50,106 bases of DNA, from positions 1 through 50,106 of the forward strand of contig BTVJ01000054.1 in assembly GCA_045863395.1 (NCBI GenBank), in the 5' to 3' direction. Each line of letters opens with the position of its first letter. The first letter of the stretch is position 1. Positions 36,291 to 45,298 of this stretch are shown here, one piece after another. The position numbers and the translations under genes are program-made. The notes under the pieces were generated by a model, which made no database searches, was not told the DNA's origin, and saw only the letters and a list, made by a program, of their open reading frames with translations. Source of the DNA: Myxococcales bacterium. Lineage in GTDB: Bacteria; Myxococcota_A; UBA9042; JABWCM01; BTVJ01.

Positions 36291-37763
36291 CTATCTGATA
36301 TGGGAGGGATCGGGGGGCGACGGATCGGTCCAGTCCCCCACGGAGCGCAGCCACGGTCCATCCCGATCCATGCGCTCATACCGCTTCCAGGTGCGCAGGC
36401 CGGCCTCCCGGTTGCCCAAGGCGATCTGGCAGTAGCCGAGCAGGTAGGTGACGTCGGCGATGTTCGGGTGGCGCCTCTGGGTCGAGACGAAGCGCTTCAG
36501 CTCCGGCAGGACCTGCCCGCACTGTCCATCGCGGGCTGCCTTTGCCATGCGGGTGACCTCGGCGCGGGGCACCCGGGGGGACGGCGAGCCGTCGGCAGGG
36601 CTCATCTCCACGCGGGTGTCGCCGACTCCCGTGACGATGGCCACCTCGGGAGCGGGGGCCGCGATTCCCTGCTCGGGAGGGGGGGGCGCTCCCGAGAGAG
36701 GGTCCGTCGCATGTGAGCGCTGGGCGACCGCCGGCCTCGAGCGCCCCTTGTCGGTGCCACCCTTGCGTGCAGCCACGCCCGACGGTGGAGTGTCCTCGTC
36801 CTCCCGGTCCGCGTGGTGCTCGGCGTCGGGTCGCTGCGCCGCGGTCCCCGCCAGCCCGGTCGCTGGTCCCACGCCCGGGTCACCCGCCCCCGTGGGGAGG
36901 GCGCCAGTTGGGCCGTCGGCGACCGCCTCTGGGGCGGTGGTGTCGACACCATCGCGCGGTGGGCCCGCGGGCGTCGCCTCAGGCTCCGCGGCGGCCACCC
37001 TCTGGGCACCTGTCGGGGCGGCGCCAGCCGCGCTCCCCTGTGCCGTCTCGGGCGGCGTCGCCTGCGCGCGGGTCGCGACCATCTGCTGCGCGCCGGCACG
37101 GAGCACGGCGACCACCCCGGCGGCGTCCGTGACCTGGATCACCCCTCGGCTCACGGACACCAGGGCCCCCTCTGCGGCGACTCGCACCGAGAACCGGGTG
37201 CCGAGGACGCGGATCTCGGCGTCGCCCACTTGCACCACGAAGGCCCTCCGCTCTGCTCGCTTCGACACATCCGCCGTCAGCTCCCCTTCGATGAGCCTGA
37301 CCACCACCGCGTCGCGGGCATTGGCGACCACCTGCATCCGGGCTGTCGATGGGGCGGTCAGCGTGCTGCCATCCGCCAGGACCTCGTGGGTGGGCGCCCC
37401 CTCGGCGCTGACCGCCGCCCCCGCGGGCGAGTCGGCATTGGGGCTGCCCACTTGATGCACCGCCCGCGGCCAGAGGATCATGGCCAGAATTGCGGCCAGC
37501 GCCCCAGCAGGGACGAGCCACCACAAGGGGCTGGTGGCGGGCCTGGTCGTCGCCGCCCGAAGGCCCGCATCGACACGGCGCCAGTCGACGGCGGGGACGT
37601 CCGAACGCGCGGCCGCTGCCAGAGATCGAACCGCGCGTGCATGGCCTGCGTGCGCCTGGCAGGACGGGCAGGCGTCCAGGTGTCGCTCCCATCGCGCCCT
37701 CTCCTGAGGGTCCAGCTCGTCGCGCGCGTCGCGGAAAGCCAGGTCGAGGCCAAGCTCACACAT
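36291..37763 (-). CDS. Transmembrane anti-sigma factor: zf-HC2 finger, TM, FecR-like domain, low-complexity linker, C-terminal TPR-like domain (490 aa)
   Basis: HLDACPSC. TM LWWLVPAGALAAILAMILWP. FecR LADGS...L.EG...IRVLGTRFSV...VSVSRGVIQV. Overlaps the sigma gene stop. Confidence 0.87.
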   Translation of the reverse strand: MCELGLDLAFRDARDELDPQERARWERHLDACPSCQAHAGHARAVRSLAAAARSDVPAVDWRRVDAGLRAATTRPATSPLWWLVPAGALAAILAMILWPRAVHQVGSPNADSPAGAAVSAEGAPTHEVLADGSTLTAPSTARMQVVANARDAVVVRLIEGELTADVSKRAERRAFVVQVGDAEIRVLGTRFSVRVAAEGALVSVSRGVIQVTDAAGVVAVLRAGAQQMVATRAQATPPETAQGSAAGAAPTGAQRVAAAEPEATPAGPPRDGVDTTAPEAVADGPTGALPTGAGDPGVGPATGLAGTAAQRPDAEHHADREDEDTPPSGVAARKGGTDKGRSRPAVAQRSHATDPLSGAPPPPEQGIAAPAPEVAIVTGVGDTRVEMSPADGSPSPRVPRAEVTRMAKAARDGQCGQVLPELKRFVSTQRRHPNIADVTYLLGYCQIALGNREAGLRTWKRYERMDRDGPWLRSVGDWTDPSPPDPSHIR

Positions 37764-38436
37764 CGAGCACTCCCTCCTTCGCGAGCCGCTGCGTCACCTC
37801 CGCGCGCGCGGCGATCAGCCGCGACCGGATGGTGTTGTGCGGCACGCCGAGGACGTCCGCTGCCTCTTGGGGGCTCAGCCCCTCGACCTCGACCAGGACG
37901 AACACCGCCCGCTTCTTGGGTGAGACCTTCTCCAGCGCCCGACCGAGCCGCCGCAGGGAGCTCCGGCTCTCGATCTGGTGGCGGAGGTCCTCCGGTGCGG
38001 CCACGTCCGCGTTCTCGTCCGCGGAGAAGAGCCGCAGCCACCGCTTGCGCGACCGCCTGCGGACCTCCTGAAGTGCCACGTTGACCGTGATGCGGTAGAG
38101 CCACGTCGAGATCGCCGATTCGCCTCGAAACCGATCCAGCGAGCGGAAGACCTCGATGAAGACGTTCTGAACGACGTCCTCGACCTCGCCTTGGGCTCCC
38201 AGGATGTGCCAGGCCACGCCGGCGACCATCTCTCTGTACCTCGCATAGATCTGCTCGAAGCTCACGGCTTCCCGCGCAGCGGAACCCGTCAGTCGCTCGC
38301 TCGCCGCCTCTCTCGGGCCAGGCGAGTGCGCCTGAGCGCTCTCGCCGCCCGCGGTCGACTCGCAGGGAGTGAGCTTCCCGGCGGCTACGGCCTGCAACGC
38401 GTGGTCCTCCGGTCGCTTCGACCCGTCGTCAGCCAT
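37756..38436 (-). CDS. ECF RNA polymerase sigma factor (226 aa)
   Basis: Region 2 EDVVQNVFIEVFRSLDRFRGESAISTWLYRITVN. Region 4 RAVFVLVEVEGLSPQEAADVLGVPHNTIRSRL. Confidence 0.93.
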   Translation of the reverse strand: MADDGSKRPEDHALQAVAAGKLTPCESTAGGESAQAHSPGPREAASERLTGSAAREAVSFEQIYARYREMVAGVAWHILGAQGEVEDVVQNVFIEVFRSLDRFRGESAISTWLYRITVNVALQEVRRRSRKRWLRLFSADENADVAAPEDLRHQIESRSSLRRLGRALEKVSPKKRAVFVLVEVEGLSPQEAADVLGVPHNTIRSRLIAARAEVTQRLAKEGVLDV

Positions 38437-39140: not shown

Positions 39141-40289
39141 ATGCACACGACGAGAGGGCGATGGGTGGCGGGGGTGCTGGCGGCCGTGCTGCCGCTCTGG
39201 GCTTGCGATGGTGGTGGCGAAGAGCAGGGATCGGGCGGTGAGGGCCCGGGGGTCTCGCTGGACGTGGTGCAGGGGGGCTCGGACGTGATGGCGGGGTCCG
39301 ACGCGGCCGGAGGCGACCCCGACGTGACCGAGCCCGACGACGCGGCCGCGGAGCAGGACCTCGGCACCGCCACCCCGGACGTGGCTGCGGGGGACGCCGG
39401 GGGCGCCCCCGACACGAGCACCGTCGACCCCAAGGCCCTGCTCGTCTACGAGCCCACGGCCGCCGAGCTTGCCGCCTACCCCCAGTGCACCCTCGAGAAG
39501 ATGACCCTGACCGTGCACGGCAACAAGGTCGCGACCCTTGCGCTCGGAAACGGCGGCCACGATGGCCACGGGCTCGACGTGGATGGCGATCCGGCCACCT
39601 GTGCGCCCGTCGACGACTGCGACAGCGGCATCGACAACCAGCTCGGCGCCCTCGGCGCCATCGTCAACGGGAGCCTCGTGGAGTCGCTGGACGCGGGGGT
39701 GATCATGCTGGTCCTCGAGTACGAGGGCTACGCCGCGGCTGGTCCTGGCAACCCGTTCAACCTCAAGATGTACACGGCGCGCATCGACCCGGACGACGAG
39801 GACTGCGACTGGCAGACCGAGGAGTGCATCTACAACATCCGCGCCGACTCCTATGACGAGAACTGCAACCCGCTCATGACCTTCGACAATGCCGTGATCG
39901 CCTCTGACGGGGCGTTCACTGCCGGCGGACCAGACGGCAAGTTCATCCTGTCCGTGCCGCTCTTCGGGCTCACCGTGCAGGTGCCCGTGTACAAGGCCCG
40001 CATCATCGGGCAGGCCGACGTGAAGAGCGGCGTCGTCCTCGGCATGGAGGGGCTCATCGCGGGGGCGGTTCCCAAGTCCGAGCTCCTGGGCGCCGTCGAG
40101 GTGATCCCCGACGAGGAGTTCACCGCCACCGGCTTCAGCAAGGACTTCATCGTCAGCGCCATCGACAGCATCGTCGCCGACGACATCGACACCGACGGCG
40201 ACGGAGTGGGGGACGGCGCCAGCGTCGGCATCCGCTTCGGCGCCATCCCGGGAAAGCTCGCCGGCTTCGAGATCCCCGCGAAACCGTGA
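39141..40289 (+). CDS. Acidic hypothetical lipoprotein (382 aa)
   Basis: GAGGA RBS. Lipobox VLPLWA-C. D/G linker, GLDVDGD..C..GIDNQLG motif, C-terminal DIDTDGDG Ca-binding-like loop. Confidence 0.8.
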   Translation: MHTTRGRWVAGVLAAVLPLWACDGGGEEQGSGGEGPGVSLDVVQGGSDVMAGSDAAGGDPDVTEPDDAAAEQDLGTATPDVAAGDAGGAPDTSTVDPKALLVYEPTAAELAAYPQCTLEKMTLTVHGNKVATLALGNGGHDGHGLDVDGDPATCAPVDDCDSGIDNQLGALGAIVNGSLVESLDAGVIMLVLEYEGYAAAGPGNPFNLKMYTARIDPDDEDCDWQTEECIYNIRADSYDENCNPLMTFDNAVIASDGAFTAGGPDGKFILSVPLFGLTVQVPVYKARIIGQADVKSGVVLGMEGLIAGAVPKSELLGAVEVIPDEEFTATGFSKDFIVSAIDSIVADDIDTDGDGVGDGASVGIRFGAIPGKLAGFEIPAKP

Positions 40290-40367: not shown

Positions 40368-41027
40368 ATGGCCGTGCACGAAGACGAGCAGATCCTGATT
40401 GACCGCTGCCTGGGGGGTGACCAGAGGGCGTGGTCAGAGTTCGTCGAGCGGTACACCGACCTCGTCTACTCGTCGATCCACCACTCGCTGCGGGCGCGCG
40501 GCGCCCGAATGGGCTCCGACGAGGTCGAGGACCTGCACAACGGTATCTTCCTCGCCTTCATCGAGCGCGACGGCCGCAAGCTCCGCCAGTTCGACGGGCG
40601 CTGCCGGCTGACGAGCTGGATCAAGGTCGTCAGCGTCAACTACACCATCGATCGCCTCCGGCGGCGTCGCCGCGTGGTGTCGCTCGACGACTCGAGCGGG
40701 GACGGGCCCGGGCTCATCGCGCTCCTCGAGTCCGACGATCGGGTGGCCTCCGAGTCCTTGGAGACGCGCCAGGACCTGAAGCTCGTCGCGGTGGTCGTGG
40801 CGAAGCTGTCCAAGTCGGAGCGGGAGCTGGTGGACCTGCTGTTCGTCCAGGAGCGCCCCTTTCCCGAGATTGCGGAGAGGCTCGGAACCTCCCTTGGCGC
40901 CGTCTACACCCGAAAGAACCGCCTGATCGCCAAGATCAAGGACCGCTTCGACAGAGAGCTGAAGAAGGTCCGCGCGAACGCTGGTGAGAAAAGCCATGGC
41001 CGCGCGTCAGGGGACGGCAAGGCGTAG
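40368..41027 (+). CDS. ECF RNA polymerase sigma factor (219 aa)
   Basis: LIDRCLGGDQRAWSEFVERY, EVEDL..IFL, FDGRCRLTSWI...NYTIDRLRR, and region 4 EIAERLGTSLGAVYTRKNR. Extended -10 TGaTATAGT at 40350-40358. Confidence 0.9.
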   Translation: MAVHEDEQILIDRCLGGDQRAWSEFVERYTDLVYSSIHHSLRARGARMGSDEVEDLHNGIFLAFIERDGRKLRQFDGRCRLTSWIKVVSVNYTIDRLRRRRRVVSLDDSSGDGPGLIALLESDDRVASESLETRQDLKLVAVVVAKLSKSERELVDLLFVQERPFPEIAERLGTSLGAVYTRKNRLIAKIKDRFDRELKKVRANAGEKSHGRASGDGKA

Positions 41028-41082
41028 GGGGAGCGCGGGGACGACGCCCGCGTTGCTTCGACCACGCCAACGAGGTGAAGAC

Positions 41083-41721
41083 ATGACGGACCCCTACAGC
41101 CATATGGATGACCTGCTCCGAGCCGCGCTCTCCACCACCTGCTCGCTGGACGACCGTGAGCTCGCCGCCATGGAGGCCGACGGGCGCCTCGCCGAGCACT
41201 CGGCTCGCTGCGCGCCGTGCGCGGAGAGGGCAGCGGTGCTGGCTCGCATCGACGCAGAACCCGTCCGGGCGGCTCCCGCCGCGCGGGCAGCCATGGTGGC
41301 GCGCGCGCAGGCGCTCATGACCCAGCGGGAAGATCTTCTGACCGTGATCGTTCGCTGGATGAAGGGCGCGTTCGACGTGCTCACCGGCGGAGAGGCGCTG
41401 ATCCCCGCCGCCGCAGTGAGCCTTCGGTCCCTCGCAGAGGACGTCGTGCACGAGCCCGTGTCGTTCCGCAAGCGCCTGGGCGGCCTAGACTTGATTGTGC
41501 ACCTGGCGCCGCGCTCCGACGAGCGCTTCGACATCCTGTTGGATCCGCCGGGTGGCCCGTCGCATCGCTACGCGCTGCTGCGGGGTGGAAAGGAGCTGTT
41601 CTCGGAGGTCTCGCGCGGGGCGCGGGTCCGGTTCCCGGAGGTGGCTCCGGGCAGCTACGCCATCGCCGTGCACACCGGCGCGGACCTGGTCGGGCGGATC
41701 GTGGTGACTGTCCACCACTGA
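41083..41721 (+). CDS. Soluble putative anti-sigma factor: HxxxCxxC zinc finger plus C-terminal Ig-like beta domain (212 aa)
   Basis: GAGGTG RBS. C...EHSARCAPC (ZAS/zf-HC2). No TM stretch. C-terminus VRFPEVAPGSYAIAV. Confidence 0.75.
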   Translation: MTDPYSHMDDLLRAALSTTCSLDDRELAAMEADGRLAEHSARCAPCAERAAVLARIDAEPVRAAPAARAAMVARAQALMTQREDLLTVIVRWMKGAFDVLTGGEALIPAAAVSLRSLAEDVVHEPVSFRKRLGGLDLIVHLAPRSDERFDILLDPPGGPSHRYALLRGGKELFSEVSRGARVRFPEVAPGSYAIAVHTGADLVGRIVVTVHH

Positions 41722-41737
41722 GGCTTGCGGAGGCTCA

Positions 41738-43789
41738 TTGGCGAGGAGAGCGCCAGTACTGGTCCTCGATGTCGCGACGAACGGTGACGGGCTACGGGTC
41801 TCCCTTCTGGAGAAGACCCCGGGCACGTGGCGCACGGTCGTACCGCTATATTTGCACCACGTCGACCTGGACCGCGTCCGCACCATCAATCGGGATATCT
41901 ACGCCATCCTGAACCGGGCCAACCGGCGCGGCGACATCGACCGCGGGAGCAGCGACATGCTGCGCCGGGCGGGGCAGCGCCTCTTCGACGAGCTCTTGCC
42001 GGGGCCCGTCAAGGAGCGGCTGCGGACTGCCGCTGTCGCTGGCATCGATGAGCTCGTGCTGTGCCTGGACGAGCCGGTGGTGTACCTGCCATGGGAGCTC
42101 CTGCATACCGGGCACGGGTTCCTGGGGCTCGACTTCGTCATGGGGCGCATCGTGCGGTCGGAGCGGGGCCCACTGGGGCCGCCGCGCGTGCTCGACACCG
42201 AGCGGCCGAGCGAGATGCTGATCGTCTGTGACCCCCGTGACGACCTGATGGCCAGCTACTACGAGGGTGTCAGCATCCGCGACGACATGGACCTGCACCG
42301 TGATCGGGTCGAGGTCGCCCTCAAGTCGAGCGAGGTGGACGTCCCCTGGCTCCAGGAGGCCATCCGGGACTACGACATCGTCCACTACGCGGGGCACGCC
42401 GACTACGTCGCGCGGGCGCCCAACGACAGCGGGTGGAAGCTCGCGGGGGGGAAGCTGACGGCCCGGGAGATCCTTCGGGTCGCCGGTGGAGCCCCGTTCC
42501 CGCTGCTCGTCTTCGCGAACGCCTGCCGGTCCGGGACCATGTCGCCAGCGCTCCTGACCGAGCGGCACGGCGAGGGGGTCTTCGGGCTCGCCAACGCGTT
42601 CCTCATCGCGGGGGTGCAGCACTTCATCGGTGCGCTGTGGGACATCCCCGACGAGAGCGCCTGTCACTTCGCGCTGGCCTTCTACCGCTCGCTGATGAGC
42701 GGGGTGACCGTCGGTGCGGCGGTGCGCGCCGCCCGCCGGGCGCTGGTCAAGCGATACGGCGCCGACAGCGTGCTCTGGGGTAGCTACGTGTACTACGGCG
42801 ACCCCACCTACGCGATCTTCGCGCGGATCCCCCTCGATGCGCCGGCCGTTCCTCGCCTGCCCACCCCGCTGCCTCGGGCCGGAGCCGAGGTCGTGGCGCT
42901 CCCGCGCGCTGCCCAGCGACCGGCCGACGAGGTGCCCATGAGGCGCGTGGCGAGGCTCCGCGGGGCGCTGGCGCTCCCCGACCTGGAGCTGCCTCGCGCG
43001 CGCCTGCCCCGCGCTGCGCTCCCTGCGCTGGCCGCTGCGGCCGTGCTGGCGATCTTGGCGGCCGTGGCGCTGCTGCTCCTCGCGCCGCTGGAGGAGGAGC
43101 CGGCCCAGTACACCTATGAGTCGGTTCCCCCCACGCGGCTGGCGCAGCGGGATGTGGCGCCGCTCCGGCCCACCATGGCGGTGGCAAGCGCGGGCCAAGG
43201 CCTCGCCGAGCCTCTGCGGGCGGAGGCCCGGGTGTTCGTCCAGACCGTGGACGCCGCGGGCGGCGTGGAGGTCGTCGAAGTCCCGGCCGGGGCGGAGCTG
43301 ATGGGCGACGACGGGTTCCAGGTGCAGCTCCGCGTCAACCGGCCGGCCTACACCTATGTCTTCCTCGTGGGGACGCGGGGGGACGTGGCGCAGCTCCTGC
43401 CGAGCCCCGGTGCCGCCGTGCCGTACTACCGGGACTCGGACGCGTGGGTGCGGCTCCCGAGCAGCGAGAGCTGGTATCGGGCCAGCGAGCGGCGGGGGCT
43501 CTACGCGGTGGTCCTCGCGGGCTCGGTGCGTCCCGTGGAGGACCTGAGGTCCGTTCTGAGCGACGTGCAGTCCATCCGGGACAAGGTGGTCCGCGAGTCT
43601 CCGCTCGTCCACGTGCTGGTGCACCGGGTGCCGCTCGGGCCGCCAAGCCGTGGCACGTGGCGCCCGACCACCGAGGACGAGGCGGTGTCCGTCACGCAGG
43701 TGGACGTGCGGCGCTTCGAGCGGGAGCTGGCGGTCCGGCTGCGGCAGTCCTTCGATGCGGTGGAGCTGCGGATCCTGCGGGTGCGGTAG
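41738..43789 (+). CDS. CHAT-domain (caspase-like, clan CD) protease with TM helix and C-terminal DUF4384-like domain (683 aa)
   Basis: GGAGG RBS, TTG start. G..LFDELLP, LPWELLH, IVHYAGHA (His220), LVFANACRSG (Cys263), GLANAFL.AG...IGALW.I.D, FY..L..G, W.SYVYYGDP. TM at ~43015-43087. GDDGFQVQLRVNRPAYTYVF..G.V.QLLP DUF4384 pattern. Confidence 0.9.
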   Translation: MARRAPVLVLDVATNGDGLRVSLLEKTPGTWRTVVPLYLHHVDLDRVRTINRDIYAILNRANRRGDIDRGSSDMLRRAGQRLFDELLPGPVKERLRTAAVAGIDELVLCLDEPVVYLPWELLHTGHGFLGLDFVMGRIVRSERGPLGPPRVLDTERPSEMLIVCDPRDDLMASYYEGVSIRDDMDLHRDRVEVALKSSEVDVPWLQEAIRDYDIVHYAGHADYVARAPNDSGWKLAGGKLTAREILRVAGGAPFPLLVFANACRSGTMSPALLTERHGEGVFGLANAFLIAGVQHFIGALWDIPDESACHFALAFYRSLMSGVTVGAAVRAARRALVKRYGADSVLWGSYVYYGDPTYAIFARIPLDAPAVPRLPTPLPRAGAEVVALPRAAQRPADEVPMRRVARLRGALALPDLELPRARLPRAALPALAAAAVLAILAAVALLLLAPLEEEPAQYTYESVPPTRLAQRDVAPLRPTMAVASAGQGLAEPLRAEARVFVQTVDAAGGVEVVEVPAGAELMGDDGFQVQLRVNRPAYTYVFLVGTRGDVAQLLPSPGAAVPYYRDSDAWVRLPSSESWYRASERRGLYAVVLAGSVRPVEDLRSVLSDVQSIRDKVVRESPLVHVLVHRVPLGPPSRGTWRPTTEDEAVSVTQVDVRRFERELAVRLRQSFDAVELRILRVR

Positions 43790-43809: not shown

Positions 43810-43847
43810 AAAAAAAAACTGGCCGCGAGCCGAAGCCCGCGGCCAGT
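43810..43847 (-). terminator. Rho-independent terminator on the minus strand
   Basis: ACUGGCCGCGGGC-UUCG-GCUCGCGGCCAGU 13-bp stem (one G.U pair, cUUCGg loop) followed by 8 further U. Confidence 0.9.
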
Positions 43848-43995
43848 CCCAACCGAACCTCCTCAGAACGAGGGCGCGGGGTCCCTGCTCCCCGCCTCCC
43901 TCCAACCTCCCAGAGGCAGGTCGCTCAGGCGGGCGCCCCTGCAAAACGCCCGGCCTTGGCTGCCTCTGTTGCGCCGTTCCTCACGACGTCTCGGG
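43810..43995 (-). ncRNA. Candidate sigma54-dependent small RNA (~185 nt, three stem-loops)
   Basis: Lies between a consensus sigma54 promoter and an intrinsic terminator on the same strand, with no SD-led ORF contained inside. Stems at 43911-43968, 43870-43902 and 43818-43847. The 5' end is inferred from promoter spacing. Confidence 0.72.
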
Positions 43996-44005
43996 CTGCC
44001 ACCCT

Positions 44006-44021
44006 TGCAATGGCGGTGCCA
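44006..44021 (-). promoter_or_regulatory. Sigma54 (RpoN) -24/-12 promoter
   Basis: Minus strand TGGCAC-CGCCA-TTGCA, an exact match to TGGCAC-N5-TTGCW. Confidence 0.82.
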
Positions 44022-44168
44022 TGGCAAGGGTGTGTGGGAATGCCAGGTCCATGTGCCGTGTTTTCGGCCTGTTGCGCTCTCTCACTCCAGAACCTGCGGG
44101 TCAGGAGTACGCACCGCGAGGCGGGCTTGGCGTGGTGTGTGGCCCTGGCTGTTCAGCCAGCCCTTTGT

Positions 44169-44224
44169 TTTCAATACCTTGGCGTGGTGACAAATTGCGG
44201 CAGCCCCACTGTCGCACATTGTCA
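44169..44224. promoter_or_regulatory. IHF-like site plus imperfect inverted repeat (candidate enhancer-binding-protein UAS)
   Basis: TTTCAATACCTTG (44169-44181) has 1 mismatch to WATCAANNNNTTR. TGACAAATTGCGGCAG-CCCCA-CTGTCGCACATTGTCA (44188-44224) is 13/16 complementary. Confidence 0.55.
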
Positions 44225-44299
44225 TGGGCCAGTGAGGCTGGCGTGGCTGGTCCTCACTCATTGATCAAGGGGGGAACACCGTGGTATCCACCGTCCCCC

Positions 44300-45298
44300 A
44301 TGGACGCCGCTGTTGACCACTCCTTTCGCGTCGGACCGCTCGCGGTGCGGCCGGGCCTCGTCCTGGCGCCGATGAGCGGGGTCACGGACAGCGCGTTCCG
44401 GCGCCTCGTGAAGCGAGCGTCGGGCGAGAGCGTCGGGCTGCTCGTCACTGAGTTCGTCAGCGTCGAGGGGCTCACTCGGAAAAATTTGCGGACCTGCATG
44501 CGCATCTCTTTCAAGGTCACCGAGGAGCGCCCCTTGTCCGTGCAGATCTTCGGCGCGGACGTGGACCGCATGGCGGATGCGGCGGCCATGGCCGAGCAGG
44601 CAGGCGCCGATCTGGTCGACGTCAACTGCGGCTGCCCCGTGCCCAAGGTCGTCCGTCGCGGGGGTGGGGCGGACCTGCACCGGGATCTCCCGCGGCTCGG
44701 GCGCATCCTGAGCGCGATTCGCAGGCAGATCTCTGTCCCGCTCACCGTGAAGATGCGCTCCGGCTGGGACGACGGCTCCAAGAACGCGGTGGAGCTGGCG
44801 CGGGTCGCCGTCGACTGTGGGGTGGAGATGCTGGCCGTCCACGGGCGGACCCGCGTGCAGCTCTACTCCGGGGAGGCGGACTGGGGGGCTGTGCGGGACG
44901 TGGCGCGGGCGGTGCCGGTCCCCGTGGTGGGCTCGGGGGACGTCACGACGCCCGACGAGGCGCTCGCGCGGCTGGACGGGGTCTCCGGGCTGATGATCGG
45001 GCGCGGCGCCATCATGAACCCGTGGATCTTCCGGCAGGTGCACGAGCGCCTCCAGGGGCGCCCCTCCACCGAGCCGACGGTGCGCGAGCGCATCGACCTG
45101 CTGGTCGCCTACCGGGACCTGTTGGCGGAGTCGCTGCCTCGCAAGGCGCTGGCCGGCCGCCTGAAGATGATGCTCTCGCGCTTCGCCAAGAGCCTCCCCG
45201 GGGGTGATGCGCTGCGCCAGGAGGCCATGCGGCAGCAGGAGGTCGGCGCCATCCTGGACGTGGTGGAGGCGTGGGCCGGCGCTCGTGCGGCGGCCTGA
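44300..45298 (+). CDS. dusB: tRNA-dihydrouridine synthase, DusB-like (332 aa)
   Basis: LAPMSGVTDSAFR, TEFVS, VQIFG, DVNCGCPVPKV, PLTVKMRSGWD, VHGRTR.QLYSGEADW, GSGDV, MIGRGA..NPWIF. Confidence 0.92.
   Translation: MDAAVDHSFRVGPLAVRPGLVLAPMSGVTDSAFRRLVKRASGESVGLLVTEFVSVEGLTRKNLRTCMRISFKVTEERPLSVQIFGADVDRMADAAAMAEQAGADLVDVNCGCPVPKVVRRGGGADLHRDLPRLGRILSAIRRQISVPLTVKMRSGWDDGSKNAVELARVAVDCGVEMLAVHGRTRVQLYSGEADWGAVRDVARAVPVPVVGSGDVTTPDEALARLDGVSGLMIGRGAIMNPWIFRQVHERLQGRPSTEPTVRERIDLLVAYRDLLAESLPRKALAGRLKMMLSRFAKSLPGGDALRQEAMRQQEVGAILDVVEAWAGARAAA

Follow-up and report, generated by a model that had tools for sequence, protein, structure and literature searches.

A probable sigma-54-driven, G-rich small RNA gene between CHAT and dusB genes in a Myxococcales bacterium

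In a Myxococcales bacterium, the gap between a gene for a CHAT and DUF4384 protein (41738..43789, plus strand) and a dusB-type tRNA dihydrouridine synthase gene (44300..45298, plus strand) carries transcription signals on the minus strand. The locus raises the question of whether this gap holds a small RNA gene of its own and, if so, what its RNA (here RNA A) could do. The window analysed is the whole stretch of 50,106 nucleotides, contig C54 of a host genome of 8.77 Mb in 186 contigs (71% GC, 97.4% complete). The stretch is present in 20 sequencing runs from 10 studies, mostly metagenomes from bioreactors, wastewater, sludge and aquatic sites. A sequence-only reading had proposed an unannotated sigma-54-driven small RNA gene with the architecture of Pxr from Myxococcus. 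The pairing of promoter and terminator supports the gene part of this proposal well, as does the presence of rpoN, IHF and 45 activators in the host, and the stretch is probably a real, lineage-specific small RNA gene. The Pxr part holds for promoter type and hairpin layout; it does not hold for length, locus, C-run or Rfam match.

The sigma-54 promoter lies at 44006..44021 on the minus strand (TGGCAC-N5-TTGCA; GG of the -24 element at 44020-44019, GC of the -12 element at 44008-44007). It was claimed to be perfect and does match the full consensus; it is the sole match in the window, where 0.01 is expected (100 shuffles). Strict sites at spacing 5 number 21 in 8.77 Mb; control spacings of 2, 3, 4, 6, 7, 8 and 9 give 1, 8, 1, 7, 1, 2 and 9 sites, and the reversed pattern gives 5. 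Most of the 24 genomic sigma-54 sites inspected by eye stand before a Shine-Dalgarno sequence and a start codon. Counting from the -12 position by a spacing rule that we take to apply here, transcription would start at about 43996. The promoter lies inside a 33-bp inverted repeat (44000..44032), which was absent from the earlier reading and is new here. This self-match has a score of 13, reached by none of 150 shuffles, and it also yields a weaker plus-strand GG-N10-GC motif (44011-44026, 8 of 11 consensus positions). Elsewhere in the genome (C15:25641-25674), two strict sigma-54 promoters stand back to back, 18 bp apart and in opposite directions.

At the other end, an intrinsic terminator occupies 43810..43847 on the minus strand. 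The proposed cUUCGg hairpin and U-tract are both there, with a 13-bp stem and nine U; z is -7.3, and none of 200 shuffles folds equally well. The terminator ranks second among 59 U-tract hairpins of the genome, and several of the genome's strongest U-tract terminators close tRNA or 6S genes. A near-consensus sigma-54 site lies 60-450 nt upstream of three of the 59 terminators, against about 0.13 expected from the background rate; the three are that of RNA A, one on contig C38 and one before a tRNA gene. For RNA A, promoter and terminator face each other about 160 nt apart and delimit a predicted minus-strand transcript of about 187 nt (43810..43996), in agreement with the length of about 185 nt first given. 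Another U-tract terminator, on C64, comes after repeat units of some 36 bp that are separated by dissimilar spacers (about 39790-40110, plus strand); the repeats look like the end of a CRISPR array.

It is improbable that promoter and terminator are merely chance neighbours, or a silent remnant, with no functional RNA between them. The two signals are each rare and face each other, and the layout recurs: of 87 class genomes, 18 contain a promoter, 100-230 nt and T6 in this order, in 30 distinct units altogether, against 5 control matches. Some of the 30 are plainly mRNA starts or coding sequence. On the side of a non-functional locus, the transcript is known as a prediction only, the body of RNA A folds with a z of only -2.1 when the terminator is removed, and all searches for homologs were negative. 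Little can be concluded from the missing homologs, as even the nearest dusB has no more than 56% identity.

The closest genomes compared are two of the same order, none being closer than order level, and dusB in the relatives is at most 56% identical. BLAST of RNA A returned short pieces only, both in 60 relatives and in 400 phylum genomes; of the 19 foreign matches in the latter, 11 were inspected and none had a promoter. A single-sequence covariance model gave a best foreign E of 0.013 in 106-107 class genomes, with no promoter at any of ten weak matches inspected, and the same model over 84 loci gave one match, without promoter or terminator. An exact 20-mer matched five times in 185,579 genomes, in no case with a promoter or terminator, and a 27-mer had no match in viral contigs. 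Comparison of dusB upstream regions, proposed as a check, showed no divergent promoter-terminator unit in 29 class loci or in the 58 of 80 metagenome loci with at least 400 nt upstream (22 were too short). Pairwise alignment with 74 other sigma-54 plus T-tract units gave a best z of 2.8, and profiles of four multi-copy families and of a C-rich set left RNA A unscored except for its terminator. The Rfam scan of the window had nothing at gathering score. Between 43700 and 44350, with E up to 10, there were nine weak matches, mostly terminator-driven and not including Pxr. RNA A thus has no Rfam match at gathering score, including to Pxr, CsrB/RsmY/RsmZ and 6S, for which an Rfam check had been suggested.

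Six of the 20 runs with the stretch are recorded as RNA. Four runs were compared, as contigs that carry no strand or end information. In two RNA runs the entire stretch is covered, promoter gap included; therefore DNA may be in them. In another RNA run, a contig ends at 43975 and coverage is absent as far as 44392, but the DNA run has holes at the same depth, and as this concerns a single study it does not count as evidence. No substitutions inside RNA A are listed in the compared runs, and therefore no covariation is countable; one run has one U fewer in the U-tract.

The whole minus-strand fold has -105.8 kcal/mol (z = -3.8), compared with -85.2 kcal/mol (z = -3.0) for the plus strand of the same stretch. 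Three hairpins had been described; this count stands if the terminator is included, the body itself having only two. Hairpin 1 (43911..43968, minus strand) has a long stem with interruptions, in the upper part of which U.G pairs occur. Folded alone, it reaches -35.4 kcal/mol (z -2.39), equalled by 4 of 200 shuffles. Hairpin 2 (43870..43902, minus strand) has an 11-bp stem and an 8-nt purine loop, AGCAGGGA; folded alone, it reaches -23.2 kcal/mol (z -2.16), equalled by 7 of 200 shuffles. The G.U pairs attributed to two stems were located in the terminator and in this upper part of hairpin 1. Unpaired linkers lie at about 43903-43911 and 43848-43869, and the 5' end is predicted to pair weakly, at long range, with the linker before the terminator.

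RNA A contains no ATG, and its body is 43% G. The earlier view that no minus-strand protein gene is served by these signals also holds, as the long minus-strand frame from 43852 is best read as a shadow frame antisense to the CHAT gene. That RNA A is a short mRNA encoding a small peptide is very unlikely. The RNA is rich in Shine-Dalgarno-like motifs and has one closed frame, of 19 codons, with a GTG start 13 nt into the RNA; this GTG has no Shine-Dalgarno sequence before it. The last of the Shine-Dalgarno-like tracts, tract 4, leads to a TTG, the frame of which crosses the terminator without a stop.

The unit is opposite to both flanking genes, as first described; it converges with the CHAT gene and diverges from dusB. 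The 3' end of RNA A is 21 nt from the stop codon of the CHAT/DUF4384 gene, which is the last of a cluster of ECF sigma, putative anti-sigma and CHAT/DUF4384 genes (40368-43789, plus strand). A second ECF sigma cluster, with a zinc-finger/FecR anti-sigma, is found at 36291-38436 on the minus strand. This proximity speaks for action in cis on the ECF-CHAT cluster, either by convergent transcription from the sigma-54 promoter or by pairing with the 3' end of a read-through CHAT mRNA. The transcripts could also overlap, because the gap has no plus-strand U-tract terminator before 44145. Nevertheless, RNA A stops short of the CHAT coding sequence, and a folded, G-skewed body would be needless for a pure interference unit; action in cis is unlikely. 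On the dusB side, a sigma-70-like site, TTGATC-18-TATCCA (44261-44290, plus strand), ends 9 nt before the ATG and suggests that dusB has its own, nearly leaderless transcript. Similar sites are visible upstream of dusB in several relatives.

Regulation of RNA A would presumably depend on the region upstream of the promoter, where an IHF-like site and a 16-bp imperfect palindrome had been proposed. Both were found in place. The IHF-like site (44169..44181, plus strand) lies between palindrome and promoter and has one mismatch to what we take to be the consensus; a strain variant at 44176 sits in its unconstrained spacer. The palindrome (44187..44225) consists of two 16-bp arms, complementary at 12 of 16 positions, around 7 bp. 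It is not rare by itself, as an inverted repeat of equal strength is common in shuffles of the region. Its position about 190-230 nt before the predicted start makes it a candidate activator site.

The host genome encodes the proteins that such a promoter would require. The absence of rpoN had been named as grounds for rejecting the gene; rpoN is present, as is ihfA. There are 51 matches to Sigma54_activat, 45 of them full-length activator domains; none of the 51 is on contig C54, so no activator gene lies near RNA A. Hfq and ProQ were not found in the host genome.

What the RNA might do is best approached through its G-rich tracts. RNA A has 12 GGAG/GAGG 4-mers and four GGAGG in 148 nt; these counts are reached by 0.18% and 0.30%, respectively, of 118,352 genome windows. 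Against 2000 dinucleotide shuffles the enrichment is weaker (p = 0.026 and 0.034). The GGAG/GAGG count is the highest when compared with 76 sigma-54 plus T-tract units from relatives, and the runner-up (11) looks like an mRNA start. RNA A has four Shine-Dalgarno-like tracts on the minus strand. Tract 1, GAGGAAC (43976..43982), is predicted to pair with the loop of the C38 RNA described below; tract 2, GGGAGG (43906..43911), is mostly in an unpaired linker; tract 3, GGAGGGAGGCGGGGAG (43888..43903), is mostly in the 5' arm of hairpin 2, which buries the longest GGAGG tract; and tract 4, GAGGAGG (43858..43864), is in the linker before the terminator, with no closed frame after it. The only C4 run of RNA A is paired in the hairpin 2 stem, and the loops are purine- or U-rich. 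The 3' end of the 16S rRNA was not found in the assembly.

The host genome has only one other strict sigma-54 plus terminator RNA unit. This C38 unit (L141; L132:4647-4803; C38:59802-59646, minus strand, about 130 nt) is flanked by a cytidine deaminase gene and an unnamed gene. Its RNA has a 10-nt CU-rich anti-Shine-Dalgarno loop, CUCCUCCUUC, which is predicted to be fully open (opening cost 0.0 kcal/mol). The unit has no Rfam match at gathering score and is weakly like one unit of another genome (L143 of G006, z about 3). Judged from sequence, the Pxr-like unit of the host genome is the C38 unit, not RNA A. A shared activator site for the two genes, TGYCGCAATT, was considered and rejected: the motif, picked post hoc, has two genomic occurrences, one upstream of each RNA gene, and in an unbiased comparison the two upstream regions rank only 111th of 276 promoter pairs. 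On contig C1 (182068, minus strand), a self-folding leader about 200 nt long comes after a sigma-54 promoter and is rich in C and U ahead of the start codon.

The opposite polarity of the two RNAs points to a possible function. The preferred mechanism, which is tentative, is that RNA A acts as a sponge, similar to RosA, for anti-Shine-Dalgarno small RNAs such as the C38 RNA. RNA A has four separate sites for the C38 loop, the most among 42 units; at least four are found in 7 of 600 random windows, but also in 64 of 300 shuffles of RNA A. The tracts are thus enriched relative to genome windows and not relative to shuffles. The best raw duplex with C38 RNA has -20.3 kcal/mol and is matched by 20 of 5200 start-codon windows, the RNA A window being about four times longer. 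Tract 3 forms the best raw duplex with the C38 loop, but opening it costs 9-13 kcal/mol.

Pairing was scored by an approximate scheme of our own making that leaves out loop-loop kissing. With opening included, net pairing of RNA A with C38 RNA is -8.2 kcal/mol, equalled by 152 of 166 shuffles of RNA A and 91 of 193 random windows; strong, cognate-specific pairing through accessible tracts, as seen in sponges, was not found. Co-folding of the two RNAs is equalled by 80 of 100 shuffles and 88 of 100 random windows, and 236 of 1500 start-codon regions match RNA A in net binding of the C38 loop. There is no cognate preference: of 11 foreign C-rich RNAs, 9 are better partners for RNA A than C38 RNA is, and of 12 foreign G-rich RNAs, 10 are better partners for C38 RNA than RNA A is. 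A duplex of -22 kcal/mol was discarded as it was seen only with a 100-nt folding window and was gone at 150 and 300 nt. As net pairing is no better than in shuffled, random or foreign controls, the sponge mechanism rests on polarity, a fitting partner and the RosA precedent. It is the weakest step of the explanation, and direct pairing with mRNAs is nearly as likely.

RNA A is likely to be a signal-induced small RNA. In the sponge mechanism, an enhancer-binding protein at the upstream palindrome, aided by IHF, would turn the gene on. First contact with the C38 loop would be made by the exposed tracts 2 and 4 or by the hairpin 2 loop; hairpin 2 would then open to form a 12-bp duplex with C38 RNA, and mRNAs repressed by the C-rich RNA would be set free.

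Direct pairing is the commonest mode among bacterial small RNAs. As a trans-acting RNA, RNA A might use its purine-rich linkers to repress C/U-rich targets, or to activate leaders by removing an anti-Shine-Dalgarno strand. This is possible to a similar, still low, degree, and the unpaired linkers of RNA A fit it. The target scans, made on rough gene calls (5200 frames), provide no favoured mRNA: the best duplexes of RNA segments S1 and S2 over 5200 start regions are close to those of five shuffles each, the best S2 match lies antisense to a coding sequence, and for S2 and S3 the longest uninterrupted complements are as long as in four shuffles each. RNA A is complementary at 26/28 positions to a stretch of a membrane-protein coding sequence on contig C12; 4 of 300 shuffles reach this, and a foreign genome yields an equal score. 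In favour of direct pairing, Pxr contacts mRNAs near the Shine-Dalgarno sequence in M. xanthus, which lacks Hfq, according to the accessible part of a preprint (10.1101/2025.09.11.675593).

The GGA motifs of RNA A could also bind a protein, making it a decoy for CsrA, in the manner of CsrB/RsmZ, or for another RNA-binding protein; a KhpB/Jag candidate of borderline score is present in the genome. The CAGGGA loop of hairpin 2 fits what we take to be the CANGGA motif of such decoys. However, the seven GGA in the body are not enriched relative to shuffles (p = 0.23), and only one GGA is in a hairpin loop. The gene csrA was not found in the 97.4% complete assembly by Pfam, by tblastn or by a profile built from five class CsrAs; it was not seen beside fliW or beside flgK-flgL-fliC, and only 5 of 87 class genomes carry it. 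FliW is an antagonist of CsrA. As fliW and a flagellar cluster are present, csrA could be missing from the assembly. The gene fliW stands alone at C146:3575-3952 (L169), away from the flagellar cluster at C34:58000-68000. A protein decoy is rather unlikely.

Sigma-54 plus terminator units elsewhere in the class provide context for the sponge mechanism. The RNA-like units fall into C/U-rich-loop types and G-rich multi-copy types, and RNA A aligns to none of them. C/U-rich-loop units are found in many class and phylum genomes (L133-L136, L143-L145, L155, L190, L196, L234-L237 and L267). Several of those in the class share an upstream TGTYGCA-N3-TGCRACA-like palindrome, which is matched at 12-14 of 14 positions in L133-L136 and L144; 12 is reached by 4 of 3000 random windows. 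In L259 (G001:C96:4659-4797), tandem A-rich repeats, each about 22 nt long, come after a sigma-54 site.

The multi-copy RNAs are dispersed, sigma-54-driven and 170-230 nt long, with many short hairpins and 3-6 copies per genome. They occur in G070 (L138, L154, L163, L194, L270, L271), G084 (L149, L168, L193, L269), G059 (L148, L165, L167, L268) and G090 (L239, L246, L250). Paired changes are visible in their alignments, 13 carry both a GGUGGUG and a GGGAGG motif, and the eight that were scanned have no Rfam match; they are possibly more novel than RNA A. G-rich and C/U-rich units co-occur in G059 and G084 as well. In G084, an exposed 10-nt purine tract of L149, L193 and L269 is perfectly complementary to a CU-rich tract of L190, and this CU-rich tract also occurs in L267 of G059; the pairing matrix shows no cognate preference of the three for L190.

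These observations allow a broader proposal, which is doubtful at present: in Myxococcota, C-rich Pxr-type RNAs driven by sigma-54 may be shut off by G-rich sponges also driven by sigma-54, without Hfq, ProQ or CsrA. RNA A would then be the sponge of C38 RNA, and the multi-copy G-rich RNAs of G059, G070, G084 and G090 would be independent versions. If true, this hidden layer would offer a testable route to signal-dependent inactivation of Pxr-type RNAs, the shut-off of which is left open in the available sections of the Pxr papers (PMC5568312, PMC5684412). A sigma-54 RNA with Shine-Dalgarno-mimicking chemistry, together with a C-rich one elsewhere in the same genome, makes a concrete two-RNA experiment possible. 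The present weight of the finding is moderate, as it concerns one orphan gene of an uncultured lineage, with no homolog found, a predicted transcript and no supported partner. No description of RNA A or of a myxobacterial RNA sponge was found in the literature, where supplements of a bioRxiv preprint may list sponge-like RNAs.

Among known systems, 6S RNA (RF00013) is similar to RNA A in length; RNA A has no match to the model and does not fold into one rod, and the 6S gene of the host is on another contig (C14:69618-69805). With CsrB/CsrC/RsmY/RsmZ, RNA A shares GGA motifs, one of them in a CANGGA-type hairpin loop. In contrast to these RNAs, its GGA motifs are not enriched, there is no Rfam match and no csrA was found in the host.

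Pxr (RF01812) of Myxococcus xanthus and the Cystobacterineae, a regulator of fruiting-body development, is the only genetically characterised myxobacterial small RNA found in the literature, where candidates such as MXnc1 are also listed (10.1101/2025.09.11.675593, in part). As far as the available text of PMC5684412 and PMC5568312 describes it, Pxr is intergenic, with a predicted sigma-54 promoter, an upstream enhancer region and several stem-loops. RNA A is likewise intergenic, with a predicted sigma-54 promoter, a candidate enhancer region upstream and stem-loops, in a host where Hfq was not found. RNA A, as predicted here, is nevertheless not Pxr. Pxr has 108 nt, compared with about 187 nt, and lies behind its activator genes pxrK/pxrR, whereas RNA A is flanked by CHAT and dusB genes (PMC5568312, available sections). 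The first stem-loop of Pxr is C-rich, its C-run being read from the antisense probe printed in the same paper; RNA A is G-rich and mimics the Shine-Dalgarno sequence with GGAGG tracts. The Rfam model of Pxr has no match in the host genome and none in 121 genomes, a scan that accordingly had no positive control.

The closest functional parallel is provided by RosA of Bacillus subtilis and RsaI of Staphylococcus aureus, to which Rfam scans show no sequence relation. RosA is a stand-alone RNA controlled by sigma-A and CcpA, with single-stranded G-rich regions that are proven to bind C-rich small RNAs, according to the sections available from PMC8216469. RNA A differs in its sigma-54 promoter, in the position of its strongest tract within a stem and in predicted pairing that does not exceed controls. 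It resembles both RNAs in being a stand-alone unit of about 200 nt with its own predicted promoter and intrinsic terminator, and in carrying several G-rich tracts complementary to a C-rich small RNA of the same cell.
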